A DNA stretch of 64,000 bases from Phycisphaerales bacterium (GTDB lineage Bacteria; Planctomycetota; Phycisphaerae; WQYP01). Location: positions 36,333 to 100,332 of the forward strand of contig DAIDJN010000054.1 in NCBI GenBank assembly GCA_027451365.1, in the 5' to 3' direction. The number at the start of each line of letters is the position of its first letter. Position 1 is the stretch's first letter. The position numbers and the translations under genes were made by a program. The notes under the pieces are model-generated. The model was not told the DNA's origin. It did not search any database and saw only the letters and a list, made by a program, of their open reading frames with translations. This document shows positions 45,752-63,495 of the stretch, piece by piece.

Positions 45752-48700
45752 TCAATCAGGTTGGATATAGATCATGCCCTCTTGGCGTAGGAACTTCGAA
45801 ACAAGTTTTGTTTCGGAATCGCCCATATTATCCATGAGTAATGTGGCGTTGCGCAACGGCGAACCCTTGCTCATTGCGACCAGCAGGTTCCGCCGGTCCT
45901 TTTGCTCAAGGTCTGAGAATCTGTCGTAGCAGCGAAGATGCCCCGAGCCCAAAGCGATAGCCGCAGCAAGAGAGACAGACCTAATCCTATGTACCTCAAG
46001 CAGGTGCCTTAGCGAACACGATTTCAGCGCATGAATTAATTTCTCGTCATCGAGGAATAGGCATCCGGCTTCCCAGCCGATACCGGTCCCATCGCAACTG
46101 TCACATTTCGTGTAGCGGAAACCGTCTTTAAGGCGAGCCCGAAAAGGTTCTTTAATGGCCCCGAAAACCTCATAAACAGAATCATGTATGCCCCTCCATA
46201 AATAATGGTCCTGCACACGATCAATTCGTTTAGCCAGCGGCTTCGAAAACCGACGCCACGGAATTCCGTGCTCAAACATTCTCCTAGTGCGCCGGTCCAT
46301 TAGCTCCAAGGGCTGAAGAAAATTCGCCACGAGCTGCGAAGCGTAGAACTTTGCCTCTGGTATGAGTCGGACATGACGTAAAGCGCGTATTGCAGCCAAT
46401 ACCTCTGGTTGCCAAAACCGATCGTCATCAATGGTCTTTCCTGCATCAGCTACGACCAGCCCAATTGGATAGGTTGCCAGCATTCCGTTACCATGGCAAA
46501 CCGAACAGCGGCCATTTATGGAACGGCAGTCGCCAATGTGCGCATCATTAAATTGAACGCCGAACGCACCGCCCTCCTCATTTGTCTGCAAAAATCGGGT
46601 GCTGATCACGCGACCCTCGTCGGGGCCCTCGAACAGTCGGGTGACGCCTTGGCTCCAACGCAATGCAATCTGCCGAGTTGCAGAACTTGCTCTAGACGAA
46701 CAAACAACCCAACCATTAAAAATCACGGCCTGGGAATTAAGCAGTGACCTGAATCGTTTTAACGGGTGGGTCCGGCCTTGAAACCAAACCAACTCAAGCC
46801 CGCATCGGAGGAGTCGGCGGGCCGCTTCTGCCCAATCGCTCGGCGTGGCTAGGCCCAGTCGCCGTTGGAGCGAAACTGGTGAAAAGCCGAACGATCGACC
46901 ATCTAATTCCCTCTCGACGTCGCTCATGTGCGCGACGGCAACGATCTCATCTGGCAATTTAGGCTGGACGAGTGGCCGGATGGCGGGAAGTAGGTCGAGT
47001 AACTCAACCACGCGGGTGTCCGCAGGCACGCGGTCAGTGTGTACCGCGATGGCAGGTAAGAGCGGCCGGTGAATATCATCGTCGGCGGTGAGCTCGGAAA
47101 GTCCGATTAATTTCTCAAAGGCGGTGGCTTGAGAAGCCCAATTCAGACCACGATCAATCTTACCGGCGACGGTCGGCGGCGTCCTCCTTATTTTACTTGC
47201 CTTAGCGTCGGTGATCTCTCCGCGCAGCAATTGCGCTGTCGGTGTGTCTGCTCGCGGCAATTCCTCAGGCGGACCCTGGAAAATCACTTTCCCTCCCTTA
47301 GCGCCGCCGGCGGGGCCAAACTCGATTATCCAATCGGATTCCCTGATAAGGTCAATTTTATGCTCGATTGCAACTAATGTATGGCCGGCCGATGCGGCGT
47401 GCCGAGATAATCGTCGAAATACCCATTGGGCGTCAATTGCACTTAGCCCCGCGGTCGGCTCGTCTAGCACGAGTAATCCGGCCCCTATCTCACCACTGAC
47501 CCTGCCTAGGTACCTGACCAGCCCCAACCGTTGCCGCTCGCCTGCAGAGAGAGTTGGAGTCGCCCGAGATAATTGAAGGTAACCCAGTCCAAGATCGACG
47601 GCTATTCGCAGGAGCGACAAGGCGGCAGAATTGATGGCTATGTGACCGCGACTCGCAAGGTCGGAAATAGTCTTGTCCAACAATTCAGCAATGGAGTCGT
47701 TCCCCAAACGAATCAATTGTGAACGCTCTGAAAGACGCCTTCCCGCACAGGCGTGGCAAGTCTCGTCGAGATCGTTTCCAAAACCATCTCTGGCGACGCC
47801 CGCCCCTTCGCAGGCAGGACATGCGCCGCGAGAATTAAATGAAAAATCCGACGCTCCGAGGCCGATCGCTTCACAAGCATCCTGAGAAGCAAATCGATTT
47901 CGAATCGCATCAAGTATTCCCAAGTGAGTAGCAACAACGCTGCGACGAGACTTGCTCCCCAATTTCTGCGCGACGACCTCCACAAAATGCAACGACCTTG
48001 GAATATGCAACCGCCCGTTATGCCATTCGACACCATCGATTAATGCCTTTGTTGCCGGAACAAGTCCGCCGAGAATGGCCGATGACTTCCCCGCGCCCGA
48101 CACTCCGACAACTAGGGTTAACCGATTCATCGGTATCTGGAACGTGGCACGCTTCACGTTGTTTACCGTTAACCCAGAAAGCCTAATCCATTGCCCATTG
48201 GGTTTAAGGGGTTCGACTGCCCGCGACCCAAGAAGCTTGGCGGGGGTACCGTGGCTTTCTGAACGCGGGGGGCCTTGGTAGACTACGCTACCGCCCCCGT
48301 CGCCACCGCACGGTCCCATGTCGACAAGCTCATCCACGGACTTCAATAGCAGCGGATGGTGCTCGACCATTAACACCGTGTTACGCTCCGCCAGTCGCCC
48401 AATAGCCGTGGCCAGCTGTCGAACATCTTTTGTGTGGAGAGCACGAGATGGCTCGTCAAGGAGATAACAGCAATCTTGTAAATCAACTGCCATAGCGACG
48501 GCCAATCGAATACGTTGCGCCTCACCACCGCTCAATGAGCTGGTAGTTCGCCCTAGCGTCAAATATCCGAGATTTAGGTCAACACAGGTGTGGACCAGTG
48601 AACCAACGGCTGCTAGGGCTGCTAGCTCTTTCCCACGCGATGTTGCCTTCCACCTTGCGACATTATCACACAATTCACTTAAGGCAGTTTTCAGCAAGAT

Positions 48701-49990
48701 GCCCGAGATGTTGATGCCGCGATAATAGCATGCGCGGGCGGATCGGTTAAGCCGGGTTCCGCCGCACTCCGGGCAATTCGCTTCGTTTACAAGCCCGGAA
48801 AGGGCGTCCCTCGCTGCACCAGCCGAAGCCACCCTAGCCTTGACCAACTCAACCAGGCCAGCAAACGGTCGTCTCGCCGGTCGCAGACGGTCATCTGAAG
48901 CGTGAAGTTCGGGGACGGGATCTTGCCCGGATCCATATAGAATTATGTTCCGAACCCCTTGGGGGATCGCCCGCCAGGCTGCGTCCAAGGGGAGATTATT
49001 GACACGCAATAGGCCGCGCAATACACAATCAAGCGAGGCTAGATGCCTAAAACGCCCCTCCGATTTGGGCAAGTTTAATCCATCATTAAGAATCGGGCGG
49101 TCTAAATGGCGAATAATTGATTGCTCGCTGACCCCCATTCGCACCCCCATACCCTCACAGCTTCGACAGCGCCCAGTCCCAATTGCCAGCGAATTGAAGG
49201 AAAGCAACCTAGGGCTCAAGGGGAGGTAAGAATAAGGCACGTCAGGAGCAACCTGATTGAACCCGCCCTCCAAAAAAATATGACCATCAATAATCCAAAG
49301 CAAACCACCGCTAGCTCGCCCAACGATTTTGCGCGCACTCGCCAAGTTTCGAATCTCGACAGACTTCTTGACGCTCGCGACCCAGAGCCTAGCCGGCAAA
49401 TCTTTTTGGGGGATGGCCTCATCGGGTGCTGCCCTCCAAAATCCGTTTCGCTCGCGGTAAAACATGGCTTTTGGGGGGAGAAGTTGACGGGGGTGCCTTA
49501 TCTCTGCGTCAGGATGCACTTCTGCGATCGAGACGGTCGAGCCCTTGTAATGACGCACCAGCCATGCGGCCATATCGATCCGGTCAGGTGAAACGATGGC
49601 CTCACCCCCCGGCGATAGCATAATCCCGTGCTGACAGACCAGTTGCGCGAGGGCGTCCATGACGCCCGAATAGGTCGCGACGGTAGAACGGCTCTGGCCG
49701 CGCAGAGGTTCCTGTTGAACGTCAATGCAGGTGGGCAAATTCGCGATCCCACATACGTCCGGCCCATACGCACGGGCGAGGCTCGATGGCAATAATCGCA
49801 ACCGCCCCAGTCTCCGCGCGCCAACTGCTCCGATCACATGGTGGACTAACGACGACTTTCCCGAACCGGATGCTCCGGCAATGCCAACCAATCGGTGCAG
49901 AGGAAGATTCAGAGAAACGCTTTTCAGGTTATTTTGCGACGCGCATTCGATGCGAATTGCCTGGTCCGCCTTGTCTACTGCTCCGCCCAT
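45752..49990 (-). CDS. Divergent, extended UvrA-like ABC ATPase (two ABC modules plus a degenerate third Zn-finger module)
   Basis: NBD1: GASGSGKSS, LSGGE, LLDEPS, VEHH. NBD2: GVSGAGKSS, LSAGE, VLDEPT, IEHK. CxxC pairs CRSC, CPEC, CPAC and CHAC, plus C-terminal CSVC and CDSC. GAGGAG RBS before ATG 49990. Confidence 0.88.
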   Translation of the reverse strand: MGGAVDKADQAIRIECASQNNLKSVSLNLPLHRLVGIAGASGSGKSSLVHHVIGAVGARRLGRLRLLPSSLARAYGPDVCGIANLPTCIDVQQEPLRGQSRSTVATYSGVMDALAQLVCQHGIMLSPGGEAIVSPDRIDMAAWLVRHYKGSTVSIAEVHPDAEIRHPRQLLPPKAMFYRERNGFWRAAPDEAIPQKDLPARLWVASVKKSVEIRNLASARKIVGRASGGLLWIIDGHIFLEGGFNQVAPDVPYSYLPLSPRLLSFNSLAIGTGRCRSCEGMGVRMGVSEQSIIRHLDRPILNDGLNLPKSEGRFRHLASLDCVLRGLLRVNNLPLDAAWRAIPQGVRNIILYGSGQDPVPELHASDDRLRPARRPFAGLVELVKARVASAGAARDALSGLVNEANCPECGGTRLNRSARACYYRGINISGILLKTALSELCDNVARWKATSRGKELAALAAVGSLVHTCVDLNLGYLTLGRTTSSLSGGEAQRIRLAVAMAVDLQDCCYLLDEPSRALHTKDVRQLATAIGRLAERNTVLMVEHHPLLLKSVDELVDMGPCGGDGGGSVVYQGPPRSESHGTPAKLLGSRAVEPLKPNGQWIRLSGLTVNNVKRATFQIPMNRLTLVVGVSGAGKSSAILGGLVPATKALIDGVEWHNGRLHIPRSLHFVEVVAQKLGSKSRRSVVATHLGILDAIRNRFASQDACEAIGLGASDFSFNSRGACPACEGAGVARDGFGNDLDETCHACAGRRLSERSQLIRLGNDSIAELLDKTISDLASRGHIAINSAALSLLRIAVDLGLGYLQLSRATPTLSAGERQRLGLVRYLGRVSGEIGAGLLVLDEPTAGLSAIDAQWVFRRLSRHAASAGHTLVAIEHKIDLIRESDWIIEFGPAGGAKGGKVIFQGPPEELPRADTPTAQLLRGEITDAKASKIRRTPPTVAGKIDRGLNWASQATAFEKLIGLSELTADDDIHRPLLPAIAVHTDRVPADTRVVELLDLLPAIRPLVQPKLPDEIVAVAHMSDVERELDGRSFGFSPVSLQRRLGLATPSDWAEAARRLLRCGLELVWFQGRTHPLKRFRSLLNSQAVIFNGWVVCSSRASSATRQIALRWSQGVTRLFEGPDEGRVISTRFLQTNEEGGAFGVQFNDAHIGDCRSINGRCSVCHGNGMLATYPIGLVVADAGKTIDDDRFWQPEVLAAIRALRHVRLIPEAKFYASQLVANFLQPLELMDRRTRRMFEHGIPWRRFSKPLAKRIDRVQDHYLWRGIHDSVYEVFGAIKEPFRARLKDGFRYTKCDSCDGTGIGWEAGCLFLDDEKLIHALKSCSLRHLLEVHRIRSVSLAAAIALGSGHLRCYDRFSDLEQKDRRNLLVAMSKGSPLRNATLLMDNMGDSETKLVSKFLRQEGMIYIQPD

Positions 49991-50091
49991 TTTCTCCTCA
50001 CGATCTATCAAGTTTTATTCTGGCTGCCTCCGCAGGCGCTTCGCAAACCAAATTCGTATATGTACGCAACAGGTCGCCCAATGGGCACGAT

Positions 50092-50817
50092 TTACCTTGT
50101 TCGATGTTCGCCCTCAGTCGCGGCGCGCCATTCCGAGTCCCGCCGAAAATAAAAAAGCATTTTATGATCGTGGGTAGTATGCACGAGACGTGACAAACTC
50201 TGCGCACGACGAGGCGTGAACTCTGGATGATAGATGTTGAAATAATCAACCGGTAACCTTTTAAGCCCGACCTCAAAGCCAGCATCGTAGAATATTTTTG
50301 CAACCTCATCGAGTGACCGGTCGTGAACGCGACAGCCTTCTTTAATCAGAAGCTCGCGTCGATGCGGCCACAGCGGATTTTCAATATGGCATCCCATCGT
50401 GGCGTAATACTCGCCCTTCTCCTTCATGACCCTGTACATCGTACCCGCTAGGGAATGCAGATCTTCAATCATCCAGAAAACCTCCTGGCTAAAAGCCAGA
50501 TCGAAGAACTCAGATAGGCCAGCAAGGGCGGACGGATAATCGTATTCGATTGGCTCGTCATTCCTTCGATTCGTTTTCGCCTGTTCAATTAGGTCGGGCG
50601 CGATGTCTACCCCGAGCCCGCGACGAAACGGACGCATACTGTGAAAAAGGCGAAGAAATGCCCCGTTCCCGCATCCATAATCGAGAACAACTTCATTTCC
50701 CGTGTGAGGTGGAATTACCTCTCGAACCATCGCGGTCCAAAAGGTGATATTTCCCCCAGCAATGCCGATGTCGTAGGCTTGGTATAAGTGCCAATCTGGC
50801 CGCATAGTCCCTGACAT
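50092..50817 (-). CDS. Class I SAM-dependent methyltransferase
   Basis: VLDYGCGNG, GVDIA, FDLAFSQEV and GCHIENPLW motifs; AGGA RBS before ATG 50817. Confidence 0.92.
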   Translation of the reverse strand: MSGTMRPDWHLYQAYDIGIAGGNITFWTAMVREVIPPHTGNEVVLDYGCGNGAFLRLFHSMRPFRRGLGVDIAPDLIEQAKTNRRNDEPIEYDYPSALAGLSEFFDLAFSQEVFWMIEDLHSLAGTMYRVMKEKGEYYATMGCHIENPLWPHRRELLIKEGCRVHDRSLDEVAKIFYDAGFEVGLKRLPVDYFNIYHPEFTPRRAQSLSRLVHTTHDHKMLFYFRRDSEWRAATEGEHRTR

Positions 50818-50830
50818 ATAACGTCCTGTT

Positions 50831-51682
50831 TCAGTGCGCGAATGCAAAAAGCATTTGTCGTCCTACGGTGGTCCCGTCTAGGAATACTTCGACGCTGCAA
50901 CGATCCCTGCCATGTACGACTCGGTGGTTGTTCAGGATTGTTACGCAGCCTGCCGCTATTGGTAATATGTTCACGTTTTCTCGAGTCAATCGCTCGAATA
51001 TTCGCATAGTTGCGGATTGTTCGGTACTCGGCGGTCGGCCTCGGTGCTTGAAACCCTGCGCGATCCTAGACCGATGATACCGAACTAGAACTCCGCCGTC
51101 GACTGTGGGGGTGATGATAGGGCTCTCAAACACCTCAATTTCGTCCTTAATATTTCTGGCGGCGAAGGGAAGGACAACGGTTTTAAACTTCACAACATCG
51201 TCGGAGCTTTCCAATCCGAAGCAAATGGACTCGACATCAGAAACGACGAGCGAACCGAGGTTGGCATAGCTATCCGACCGCAGGCACAGTGACATTGTCA
51301 ATCTTGGGGGGCGAGCAATCATGCTGTAATCGGTGTGAAGGGGAAGGGAACGAATTTGATTGCCCATTAGGTGCTGCCCTGGGCGAACGCGAGCGGGGAT
51401 TACCGCCCCTGCCTCCGATGGATCGATCAATACGGATCCCAGAAGCGTCACGAGCCCCAAGAACAATGTCTCCAAATGCGATGGCGGAAACCCGGAAATT
51501 TGAATAAAACCCTGCTCATCAAGGATGGCTTGTGCCACCTCGGACACGACACAGAGCGGCCGGCAGGATTCAGCCGCTTGGCGGACGGCGTCGAGCTCAA
51601 GGGCGCTTTTTGGAAAATTAGAAACCAGATAATTTGCAGCCGAATAAAGGGCACCACGAAGATCTTCGCCAATTAGAAGCAT
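50831..51682 (-). CDS. TauD/TfdA (clavaminate synthase-like) Fe(II)/2-oxoglutarate dioxygenase
   Basis: PLHTD (HxD) and ILNNHRVVHGR facial-triad motifs. Confidence 0.88.
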   Translation of the reverse strand: MLLIGEDLRGALYSAANYLVSNFPKSALELDAVRQAAESCRPLCVVSEVAQAILDEQGFIQISGFPPSHLETLFLGLVTLLGSVLIDPSEAGAVIPARVRPGQHLMGNQIRSLPLHTDYSMIARPPRLTMSLCLRSDSYANLGSLVVSDVESICFGLESSDDVVKFKTVVLPFAARNIKDEIEVFESPIITPTVDGGVLVRYHRSRIAQGFKHRGRPPSTEQSATMRIFERLTRENVNILPIAAGCVTILNNHRVVHGRDRCSVEVFLDGTTVGRQMLFAFAH

Positions 51683-51706: not shown

Positions 51707-52123
51707 TCAGCGGCAATCCTTCGTTGAGCATCTGTGAGCGGGGCCGATCATCGGTTCACCGAATTCGCGCAGCCAAAGAGCTTTGGTCTGTTCCCAGCCA
51801 TCTTGGTTAGCCTTTCGGTCTTCATCGCCCTTCAAACCGAAATAGGGATCATGGTGCAAATAGCTGCCGAACAGTCGATTGCAGTCCTCGATGTACTTCC
51901 GAGTGTCCAAAATGTGGTAATGCCAAACCAGATCGACCATTGCACTCGGTACGAGAACTGCGGAAGGATTTCGCTGCCGCAGCGTCAAAAATTGTCGGTA
52001 GACGCGTTCGGCCACGTCGTAGTCGATCAACTCACCGCCGAGCATCTCGTTTTCGCTTTTCATCTTGAAGAAAATCGGGGATAGATCTACCTCGACGAGA
52101 GCGACAGCGGGTTGCAAAAGCAT
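51707..52123 (-). CDS. GRDP/DUF1399-like ('glycine-rich domain-containing') small protein with Cys-containing C-terminal tail
   Basis: YRQFL.L, VPSAMVDLVWHYHILDTRKY..DC...FG.YLHHDP motif; tail HRCSTKDCR; GGAGG RBS. Confidence 0.8.
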   Translation of the reverse strand: MLLQPAVALVEVDLSPIFFKMKSENEMLGGELIDYDVAERVYRQFLTLRQRNPSAVLVPSAMVDLVWHYHILDTRKYIEDCNRLFGSYLHHDPYFGLKGDEDRKANQDGWEQTKALWLREFGEPMIGPAHRCSTKDCR

Positions 52124-52678
52124 AGTAACCTCCAGCGTTCAACGACCATCGGGAAATCTGTCGAACCTACGAAAAATTTCCTGCCGATAATCTCATTTTC
52201 TGCATTGTATTACTACGAGAGTCGGCGGTCAAGATATCGATAATCGGCCCGAGAAGGAAAAATCCACCCAGGACCACGTCGATTGCTTGAAGTTTAATAT
52301 CCACATTTGTGCGTTTCTCGTGCGGTGCCGCGCGACTAGCTGCTTTTTCATCGAATTCCTCTGGCGCGGTGCGAGTGCTAATCTTAACCCACATTTATTT
52401 TTGCCCCAGCCTCCCCCTGCGTTCTCTGCGGCGAATAAAACTTCGCCAATAGATGAATACTTGGGGCAATAGCCTGTTAAATCAGGGGTGTGCGGTGCGT
52501 TGTGCCCTTGCGGATTAGCCTATTGAGTCCTTTCGCGGCTTGCCGGTTGGCGCAGTGCGGTGAAGGGAAGGAAAATCCTTGGGATCGTCGGCTGCCGGAG
52601 GAAGGCCCGCCACGGCTCGGGGCCGGTCGAAATCTGTTGATGCTGGTTAAATCCCTTGAAAAAGGCGACCGGTGACCT

Positions 52679-61693: not shown

Positions 61694-62155
61694 GATATCG
61701 GATAATAGACGGCAAGGAACGTGCATTGGCTTGGCACACAGCAACTGGCGACGTTATGATTTAGGCACCAAAGTAAGGTCGGCCTTTTTCAAGGCAGGTT
61801 TATGGTCGCACTGGATAAACAATTTGACCACCACCACGGCACCAAGCCGCGAAGTTGCGGCCGCTGGCGCGATGAGTCTTGGCAGACGGGAAAATCTCCT
61901 GGTCACCGGACCGCAGACATCCTGTCTGCCCGTCGTCACCGCGATATGTTCAATTCCTCCAATACCTCCTGTGCGAATGAAATAATCTATTGCGGCTACC
62001 GCCTTGATCCTGAATCGCAGGTTTATTACGTCCGCAATCGGACATACAACGCCGTTCTTGGCCGTTGGGCACAGCGTGATCCGATCGGGTATGACGGCGA
62101 AATAAATTTGTATCAGTACGTCGAACCCTCACCGGTGGGTAAGGTTGATCCAAGC
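61694..62155 (+). repeat. B/C-type leader plus core repeat (copy C), including the 66-bp core at 61913-61978
   Basis: Inverted homologue of 3640-4094. Confidence 0.95.
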
Positions 62156-62434
62156 GGCGAATTGACTATTGGGGCTGTTATAAAATGGTTTATTGCAACC
62201 TACCGCCAGGCGGTTCCTGACGGCGAATTCGTGGATGCGACCTACGCCGTACCATCAATTATGCGGCTTTGGTTAAACAAGGAGGCGGCCAACCGCATGA
62301 TTTATGATTTGGACCATTGCATTGCTTGGGAGAAGGACCCCTTGTACAAAGGATTGCTGAATATGTCACAAGGGCAACCGCTGACGCCCGCCGAACACGG
62401 GGCGGTCCAAGACATGCTCGAGCAGCGTAAATAG
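61802..62434 (+). CDS. Mini-RHS toxin (module C) with uncharacterised helical tip
   Basis: Same N-terminus as module B (MVALDKQFDHHHGTKPRSCGR); RHS core up to VDPSG; tip of about 90 aa. Confidence 0.8.
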   Translation: MVALDKQFDHHHGTKPRSCGRWRDESWQTGKSPGHRTADILSARRHRDMFNSSNTSCANEIIYCGYRLDPESQVYYVRNRTYNAVLGRWAQRDPIGYDGEINLYQYVEPSPVGKVDPSGELTIGAVIKWFIATYRQAVPDGEFVDATYAVPSIMRLWLNKEAANRMIYDLDHCIAWEKDPLYKGLLNMSQGQPLTPAEHGAVQDMLEQRK

Positions 62435-62539
62435 AAAACCGGCGTAAACGGTCCGGGCGCTCAGCGTGTCGTCATCGGTCAAGGCGGCGAGGTCTATTAC
62501 ACGCCCGACCACTATCAAACTTTCATTCAAGTGAAGTAA
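62435..62539 (+). pseudogene. C-terminal remnant of a barnase/RNase Sa-type ribonuclease toxin
   Basis: Manual translation KTGVNGPGAQRVVIGQGGEVYYTPDHYQTFIQVK* has the R...YYT.DHY.TF signature. It lies in frame directly after the TAG of module C. Confidence 0.8.
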
Positions 62540-62555
62540 AGGGAGACGATCCATT

Positions 62556-62939
62556 ATGACTGATATATCAGCATTTTCATTCGACACGAGTTCCCTGAAC
62601 CTAGACCCAAAGGCTGACTTCATTGCCAAGGTGCCGACAGGAATAAGTGATCGAAAAGCCTTCCTCGAAGTGATGCGCATGATACTGCAATTCCCCGTCT
62701 ATTTTGGCAATAATTGGGATGCCTTAGCGGATTTCCTCAGGGATTTGTCATGGATTCAACAGCGTCGCGTTGTTATCCTGCATGATGATATCCCACCGTT
62801 GGATTCGAGCTCTATCTCCACGTATTTGGACGTCCTCGCTGATTGCGTGCGCGACTGGAAGCCGGGCGAGGACCATGAGTTAGTAGTAGTATTTCCTTCG
62901 GGGGCTCGTGATGCCATAAGCAAAATTGTTAGAAATTAA
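62556..62939 (+). CDS. Barstar family ribonuclease inhibitor (immunity)
   Basis: LQFPVYFGNNWDALADFLRDLSW motif; GGGAG RBS. Confidence 0.92.
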   Translation: MTDISAFSFDTSSLNLDPKADFIAKVPTGISDRKAFLEVMRMILQFPVYFGNNWDALADFLRDLSWIQQRRVVILHDDIPPLDSSSISTYLDVLADCVRDWKPGEDHELVVVFPSGARDAISKIVRN

Positions 62940-63171: not shown

Positions 63172-63495
63172 ATTTGCCGCGAATTTGATCAAAGGTATAA
63201 TCGAAGTTGGAACAGCTTGAAAAGGGATCGCTCGTTTGGTTGCAACTGACGAAATGCTTTCGGAATGCTTGCTTGCCAGCCAAAGCCCCCGGCGGCAGAA
63301 TTGTGGTGCAGACATCTTGTCTGCCCGTCGTCACCGCGATATGTCCAGTTCCTCCAATACCTCCTGTGAGAATTTCAATCATCGAAAGGCCTCCTTCACT
63401 GGCGTTGAGTCTTCGTGTAGTCGCGGCGAAGACCGGTTTTTCACTCCCGGTTCGCAACTTTCATCTTCTGACTTGCCAGTTTATTACTTGCAGGA
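63172..63495 (+). repeat. A/D-type leader repeat (copy D), including the 66-bp core at 63308-63373
   Basis: Inverted homologue of 1190-1510. Confidence 0.9.
63174..63201 (+). promoter_or_regulatory. Putative sigma70 promoter of module D (TTGCCG-N16-TATAAT)
   Basis: Near-consensus -35/-10 boxes, conserved with module A. Confidence 0.6.

Follow-up and report, generated by a model that had tools for sequence, protein, structure and literature searches.

A four-gene bacterial unit headed by a cysteine-tailed GRDP protein, a candidate self-modifying maturase

In borosins, an N-methyltransferase domain and the core peptide are carried in one chain. Burpitide cyclases have a His-containing, metal-dependent domain and occur in fused and split pathways with repeated cores, according to the available part of one account (PMC11253845), and the accessible portion of another describes a burpitide pathway in which the cyclase is joined by two further enzymes, an Fe/2-oxoglutarate enzyme and a SAM methyltransferase (PMC12871766). 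TIGR04222 proteins and MNIO substrates, as presented in the portion of their report drawn on here, are folded proteins with C-terminal Cys-rich tails that are proposed modification substrates (PMC12452194); a search of that article for GRDP gave 0 occurrences.

The GRDP/DUF1399 literature, judged by its titles, concerns plant, fungal and animal genes, such as AtGRDP1/2 (PMC4299439), and gave no molecular activity in the portions available to us. Plant GRDP genes are reported there to affect growth and stress tolerance. UvrA-like genes, in turn, are described in the parts of two reports used here as markers of DNA-intercalator clusters and as a source of self-resistance, the class IIa proteins Ecm16/DrrC/MtrX being examples (PMC9328131, PMC10413001).

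Here we analyse a GRDP gene and its neighbours in a 64,000-nucleotide stretch (the window) of a Phycisphaerales bacterium contig (DAIDJN010000054.1, positions 36,333 to 100,332). The four-gene GRDP unit is real and conserved and, as far as searched, undescribed, and is of a fused-precursor type with an unrelated candidate enzyme. No account of a bacterial GRDP function or of a GRDP/TauD/methyltransferase/UvrA operon was found in the open literature, a scope that leaves subscription journals and supplements outside; genome-mining supplementary tables could list such clusters.

The GRDP protein and its operon partners

The preliminary description had noted a GRDP-like ORF with WHYHILDT and HHDP motifs and a C-x4-C tail, which it took to be the first gene of an operon with a strong GGAGG ribosome-binding site. 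All of these elements were present in the ORF listed first in Table 1, which heads four co-oriented, closely spaced genes and has the GGAGG at the spacing given there. The sigma-70-like promoter match (10/12) lay ~80 nt upstream of the GRDP ATG, one site being found against a mean of 1.3 in shuffled sequence.

Table 1. Positions of the features discussed, in window coordinates or, where a locus handle is given, at other loci
Feature	Location	Strand	Description
GRDP-like/UCP032817 protein	51707..52123	minus	138 aa, ATG start; five-helix domain at residues ~10-121 plus Cys tail
D64-x2-W-H68-x-H70-I-L-D73-T motif	51902..51934	minus	On helix 61-72; contains WHYHILDT (residues 67-74)
H90-H91-D-P93 loop (HHDP, residues 90-93)	51845..51856	minus	H91 a candidate third metal ligand
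Tail, residues 127-138, GPAHRCSTKDCR	51710..51745	minus	C132-x4-C137-R; candidate core peptide
GGAGG ribosome-binding site of GRDP gene	52129..52133	minus	5 nt before ATG
Sigma-70-like promoter match TTGACC-17-TACAAT upstream of GRDP gene	52204..52232	minus	Not above chance
TauD/TfdA-family Fe(II)/2-oxoglutarate oxygenase	50831..51682	minus	283 aa
Class I SAM methyltransferase	50092..50817	minus	241 aa from ATG 50817; frame open from TTG at 50847
UvrA-derived ATPase	45752..50011	minus	1,412-1,419 aa; likely start ATG 49990 with GAGGAG
CKxGQHC-tail loci	L017, L020, L031, L040, L056, L076, L115, L129, L147, L158		Beside fused TfuA-YcaO, radical SAM and SagB-type dehydrogenase
Three-gene split units	L212:5530-7622, L213:5632-7613		Plasmids; 42-44-aa HCQGGG-x-W peptide, tail-less GRDP, ~440-aa membrane protein
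Orphan methyltransferase relatives	L254:6980-7654, L255:6968-7669, L256:6099-6779		Rhizobial plasmids, including Sinorhizobium pSymA

The protein belongs to the GRDP-like family of Pfam (PF07173; 29.3 bits against a cut-off of 22.7), PF27765 (UCP032817-like) was also recorded for it, and a search of NCBIfam returned no match. Its predicted structure consists of five helices with a mean pLDDT of 88.6, the last eight residues having 55. Searched with this model, Foldseek gave no PDB match at E ≤ 0.001, and a wide fold search gave at best a Z of 3.2 (rmsd 4.7, 86 aligned), while a profile search of PDB sequences gave nothing below E 0.89; finding no solved relative in these searches is evidence neither for a new fold nor for a difference from known folds. 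Giant-virus proteins annotated as glycine-rich domain-containing matched the model by fold.

Of the three partners, the TauD product scored 35.3 bits against a Pfam cut-off of 27 and has an intact H-x-D...H triad; H116, D118, H257, R259 and R275 were invariant in 21 operon TauD copies, and the nearest solved relatives of its profile were mostly small-molecule hydroxylases. The fold search with the methyltransferase recovered generic class I enzymes only. The UvrA derivative, a fixed member of the GRDP/TauD/methyltransferase unit that the preliminary description did not mention, contains two intact ABC ATPase modules, whose Walker and signature motifs are conserved, and a C-terminal third module that is UvrA-like (E 3e-13; Atlas lead 0.85), with zinc-finger cysteines and no Walker A. 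It is ~31% identical to a canonical 953-aa UvrA encoded on another contig of the same genome. Neither a peptidase nor an exporter was found among the conserved genes of 30 operon loci; these could be supplied from elsewhere.

The methyltransferase also has relatives outside the unit. Three from rhizobial plasmids (34-36% identical) grouped with an operon methyltransferase at a support of 0.97, and within 7 kb of them no GRDP, TauD or UvrA-like gene was found (3/3 inspected, from 27 plasmid records matched), so that members of this methyltransferase family can do without a GRDP tail. Two of these orphans adjoin iron ABC transporter genes. Separately, at three loci the UvrA-like gene is directly preceded by a second methyltransferase paralogue (L006:10892-11602, L007:9954-10730, L091:3199-3909), whose SAM-binding motif is degenerate; going by that motif, the paralogue is possibly a non-catalytic partner.

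Tail types, enzyme sets and split forms

Tails were compared with neighbouring genes at 160 GRDP loci drawn from genome contigs (best 80 of 105) and metagenomes (best 80 of 189), many of them short and several near-duplicates. A single-sequence pattern scan of the genome contigs gave nothing; an alignment-based scan recovered loci. The C-x4-C-R class comprised 31 loci, 29 of them assigned by script and two (L002, L088) added, with L086 assigned by hand from its matches. TauD/methyltransferase/UvrA-like/PhyH genes were downstream in 30 of these 31, the exception (L085) stopping at the contig end, and in none of the 129 loci with other tails.

We distinguished three operon types. One is the four-gene form of the window; another has a second methyltransferase, its SAM motif degenerate, and optionally PhyH; the third includes a pentapeptide-repeat gene whose product is membrane-anchored. 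For this pentapeptide-repeat product, identity as a Qnr-like gyrase protector was rejected for now, as scores fell far below the cut-off and the N-termini are hydrophobic. A fourth form, ending C-x4-C-P, is complete on a plasmid (NZ_CP029836.1) of Azospirillum ramasamyi M2T2B2, a cultured soil bacterium. Among 18 full operons (the window and 19 other loci, two of which were dropped as duplicates), all four protein trees gave the same three clades, and pairwise identities were correlated (Spearman 0.60-0.94). Around the operon, a Ser/Thr kinase gene converges on it from downstream in L002, L003 and L083/L084, while L005, L086 and L089 have a divergent pentapeptide-repeat gene of ~590 aa upstream of it.

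Other tails were accompanied by other enzymes. TfuA-YcaO, SagB and radical SAM proteins are textbook peptide-modifying enzymes, and a TfuA-YcaO/SagB cluster member was present in 10 of the 12 loci with a CKxGQHC tail, several of which also had a radical SAM gene; from this gene content, these loci are candidate thioamide/azole clusters with GRDP as the precursor. CWHDC tails had a small TauD-like gene directly upstream in 22 loci (Pfam-checked for one), this TauD differing from the operon type, and two proteins fuse a small TauD-like domain to GRDP. At five loci with a CxGHxCH tail (L124, L133, L136, L143, L149), GRDP stood directly before a prokaryotic viperin, which in L133 (L133:1431-2393), the only locus checked against NCBIfam, matched NF038283 with 261 bits against a cut-off of 180. 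A nucleotide kinase follows the viperin in the CxGHxCH loci, as does a 5'-nucleotidase in L133. Distant GRDP proteins ending C-x-P-C-H-P-G were noted in Streptomyces plasmid units (L222:3351-5096, L227:3339-4622), where they lie behind an HTH regulator with a different methyltransferase, and L222 also has a GNAT gene. Some other-tail loci were without any partner enzyme.

The pairing of different tails with complete-looking enzyme sets (TfuA-YcaO, radical SAM, SagB) would suit a GRDP domain that has no catalytic part and acts as a structured leader or recognition element, with neighbouring enzymes doing all of the chemistry. TauD-GRDP fusions fit this too, and GRDP of the split form described below could act as a stand-alone recognition element. 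We nonetheless consider a passive role improbable, given the residues and split units considered below.

Within the unit, the tail varied little. The preliminary description had suggested checking whether it is hypervariable but Cys-conserved in TauD-linked copies; it is conserved, as 47 of 57 homologues ended in C-x4-C-R, and the other 10 were fragments or distant relatives with other tails. It is across the GRDP family (5,967 clusters at 50% identity, with tails scored from the best 150) that tails were hypervariable, Cys-rich and often repeated. Among the 145 scorable divergent representatives of those best 150 clusters, 135 had tail cysteines and 17 had at least three repeats of an A-x-[C/S]-x unit; one member of the family had four Cys repeats at its N-terminus and no C-terminal tail. 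In some repeats (AYSGR, AFSWA, AMSN) Ser replaces Cys, which suggests modification of a nucleophilic side chain more than a metal ligand.

The same substitutions bear on a reading in which GRDP handles metal or acts on small molecules and its tail binds metal only, while a metabolite would be made or detoxified by TauD and the methyltransferase and DNA would be protected from it by the UvrA derivative. In favour of this reading, metal sinks typically have low-complexity tails rich in Cys, TauD and the methyltransferase resemble small-molecule enzymes, and orphan methyltransferases exist. However, Ser in place of Cys is better suited to a modification substrate than to a metal ligand, and tail type is strictly paired with enzyme set, and we regard this metabolite reading as quite unlikely.

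Five multi-core members adjoin a CHASE-domain sensor gene and had no maturase among the neighbours scanned; therefore, the domain itself, or a gene located elsewhere in the genome, would have to supply any chemistry. Two further arrangements were observed. In L022/L139:7911-8918, L142 and P0114 a Hint (intein-like) domain is fused directly after the GRDP Cys tail, which it might, from its position, release or expose, and L119, L125 and L128 have a tandem pair of GRDP domains with a different Cys tail on each.

Other GRDP members have no tail and lie beside a separate Cys peptide. An SD+ATG Cys-peptide ORF was directly upstream in 11 of 20 tail-less members vs 13 of the 130 that have a tail (Fisher P 1e-5, with kin not independent), and in shifted controls the counts were 2/20 and 5/112, respectively. 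The filter was tightened after inspection, a looser version having given 15/23 tail-less vs 43/127 tailed; under the SD+ATG filter 9 of the 20 tail-less members had no upstream peptide, and one of the 11 positives (L250) looks spurious. The clearest cases, on two plasmids of different genera, encode peptides that share a C-terminal HCQGGG-x-W core and have unrelated N-termini, with a homologous membrane protein downstream of the GRDP gene. The Halomonas plasmid copy of this split unit (NZ_CP130702.1), which encodes a 42-aa peptide, adjoins a LuxI/LuxR pair. In a second clear group, C-x3-C-x2-G-x-C peptides lie beside tail-less members. Core placement is thus like that of burpitides, with cores fused to the GRDP domain, repeated, or encoded by a separate gene beside it.

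These results bear in two directions on the preliminary proposal that the protein is a fused precursor or a self-modifying enzyme. The tail tracks the enzyme set, tails are core-like, and split peptide genes exist, all of which favour it, while the conservation of the tail in the unit and the want of a peptidase or exporter speak against it.

A candidate metal site and the possible use of the unit

In 136 divergent GRDP sequences that were not chosen by motif (134 of 149 representatives plus two, with 15 fused or truncated representatives left out), D64, W67, H68, H70 and P93 were invariant, and H90, H91, D73 and the first tail Cys were each present in at least 90%. D64, H68, Y77 and H91 were also kept in all 150 non-redundant GRDP cores, 20 of them tail-less and 130 tailed. 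Since loci L001-L160 were retrieved with His-containing patterns, His conservation among them is partly circular; the 136-sequence alignment and the genome-search/plasmid loci are free of that bias. The two-His-one-carboxylate arrangement is a metal-site motif, and in the predicted structure D64 and H68 lie on successive turns of their helix (i, i+4), a spacing from which we place D64, H68 and H91 as a candidate site of this kind.

The best reading of this pattern is that the GRDP domain acts as a candidate catalyst, its Asp/His side chains being invariant with or without a tail. A structured leader, one of the options raised in the preliminary description, fits less well because the same Asp/His set persists in tail-less members and where no other enzyme is nearby, and invariant side chains of this sort would be unusual in a leader. 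Moreover, the three-gene split units of peptide, GRDP and membrane protein, as well as the enzyme-less multi-core members beside sensors, would have no catalyst other than GRDP.

In the reading that we prefer, the GRDP protein would likely be enzyme and substrate in one chain, a metal-dependent maturase whose predicted Asp64/His68/His91 site modifies C132 and C137 of its own tail in cis, after which further tailoring would fall to the co-inherited TauD oxygenase and SAM methyltransferase. For metal binding, catalysis and tailoring jointly, we stop a little short of calling this probable; a metal-binding or redox motif would also look like the short, conserved tail that is single-copy in the unit. 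Because the unit is without an exporter or peptidase, the modified product would likely stay in the cell, where it may act on DNA. The likeliest role of the UvrA derivative would be host-DNA protection, because self-resistance is what UvrA-like genes provide in the DNA-intercalator clusters that they mark; here it might scan DNA and shield the host chromosome from the tail-derived product, and the net use of the four genes could be conflict or defence. That the whole chain holds, including an intracellular DNA-directed product and self-protection by the UvrA derivative, we think unlikely; against it stand the build of the UvrA derivative, which is not that of class IIa, the resemblance of TauD and the methyltransferase to small-molecule enzymes, and the orphan rhizobial methyltransferases. 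Possible, if on the doubtful side, is a broader proposal in which GRDP/DUF1399 would be a class-defining metalloenzyme with a new fold, active in cis or in trans on peptides with Cys (or Ser) in bacteria, giant viruses and plants, with the operon tail becoming an oxidised, methylated intracellular DNA-directed compound or cofactor that is paired with a one-and-a-half-length UvrA as chemical defence.

The four-gene unit is accessory and sporadically spread. GRDP was found in 0 of 36 same-family genomes, with one distant, membrane-bound relative among 60 relatives, and the operon methyltransferase in 0 of 400 genomes of the phylum at E ≤ 1e-40. In a genome of the same genus, the neighbouring ileS/methylase genes are present and the unit is missing from the stretch examined. 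The GC3 of the three downstream genes (0.53-0.56) is lower than that of ileS and polA (0.62-0.63), GRDP itself having 0.62. Phage genomes yielded three weak matches. Elsewhere in the window (61802-62939, plus strand), a 210-aa ORF with an Rhs-core-like end precedes a 127-aa ORF that presumably resembles a barstar-type immunity protein. A short sequence is duplicated at about 61750-61990 and 63250-63460.

Such sporadic spread would also suit an intracellular anti-phage or anti-plasmid system. In it, sensing of DNA that is foreign or damaged would be the task of the UvrA derivative, the tail would serve as a metal ligand or redox switch, or would carry a modification without being released, and TauD and the methyltransferase would mark a nucleotide, protein or DNA. 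Consistent with this, the unit has no exporter, the Azospirillum plasmid copy lies directly behind Dcm methylase, DUF2357 and Vsr genes, and other tail classes have similar defence-type neighbours, with GRDP directly before viperin and a nucleotide kinase in one of them. Defence-type genes flanked 5 of 15 operon loci vs 1 of 15 control windows, an enrichment that is not significant (two-sided Fisher P 0.17) and that compares unequal thresholds (1e-6 vs 1e-10) with controls from five genomes of one class. Mobile islands of any sort, however, attract such neighbours, and PADLOC-DB 2.0 (2023) gave no match for GRDP or TauD and only partial methyltransferase and ABC-ATPase matches, none of them specific. 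A defence system would also leave the multi-core and split forms unexplained, and we hold it to be a serious rival, though a rather doubtful explanation when taken by itself; a defence role is compatible, at the level of purpose, with a self-modifying maturase.

Self-modification of the GRDP tail, if true, would be an undescribed kind of peptide-modifying system. The family is large and reaches plants, and neither a solved relative nor an activity was found for it; a modified tail, if true, would represent a new class of peptide modification as well as a biochemical lead for the plant GRDPs. A 138-residue protein that carries its own candidate substrate is about the simplest possible test case, and its constant association with an unusual UvrA derivative raises the further possibility of a new DNA-directed product or defence system.

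Comparison with described systems

The plant proteins AtGRDP1/2 belong to the same domain family, as far as the portion of their description used here shows (PMC4299439), and the domain in the window differs in being free-standing, with a tail of 12 residues, and in being encoded in a bacterial operon of enzymes. With the class IIa UvrA proteins, as characterised in the available part of their account, the unit has in common a second, non-housekeeping UvrA inside an enzyme cluster. Class IIa proteins lack the UvrB-binding domain and the first zinc finger, whereas the UvrA derivative of the window has a ~140-residue insert there (PMC9328131, in the part consulted). This insert is of about canonical length and weakly matches the canonical UvrB-binding domain (9.6 bits), and the first zinc finger is degenerate in the window's copy and apparently intact in that of L041. 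The derivative is also longer, at ~1,410 aa with a third, ATPase-less module vs 812 aa in the solved class IIa chain 7SH1, and its extra C-terminal UvrA-like module sets it apart from the class IIa build of a single unit with two ATPase modules only.

TIGR04222 proteins and MNIO substrates, in the portion of their report at hand, resemble the GRDP protein in being folded proteins with a C-terminal Cys tail. A link to them was rejected, as there was no TIGR04222 match in the GRDP protein or 20 relatives and no MNIO among the conserved annotated neighbours. Borosins share the placement of enzyme and core in one chain, but there the fused domain is the methyltransferase, here encoded as a separate ORF, and identity as a borosin was rejected on this basis.

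At the level of sequence, membership of the GRDP protein in the BURP family was likewise rejected, with no Pfam BURP match at E ≤ 0.1 and no CH dipeptide in the sequence. As far as the accessible parts of the burpitide accounts go, the likeness lies in the fused/split logic, the repeated cores and the trio of activities, and the differences in that the GRDP cores centre on Cys rather than on Tyr/Trp cross-links, and that the GRDP unit is bacterial, its activity a predicted one. The likeness between GRDP and the burpitides is, then, one of analogy and not of homology.
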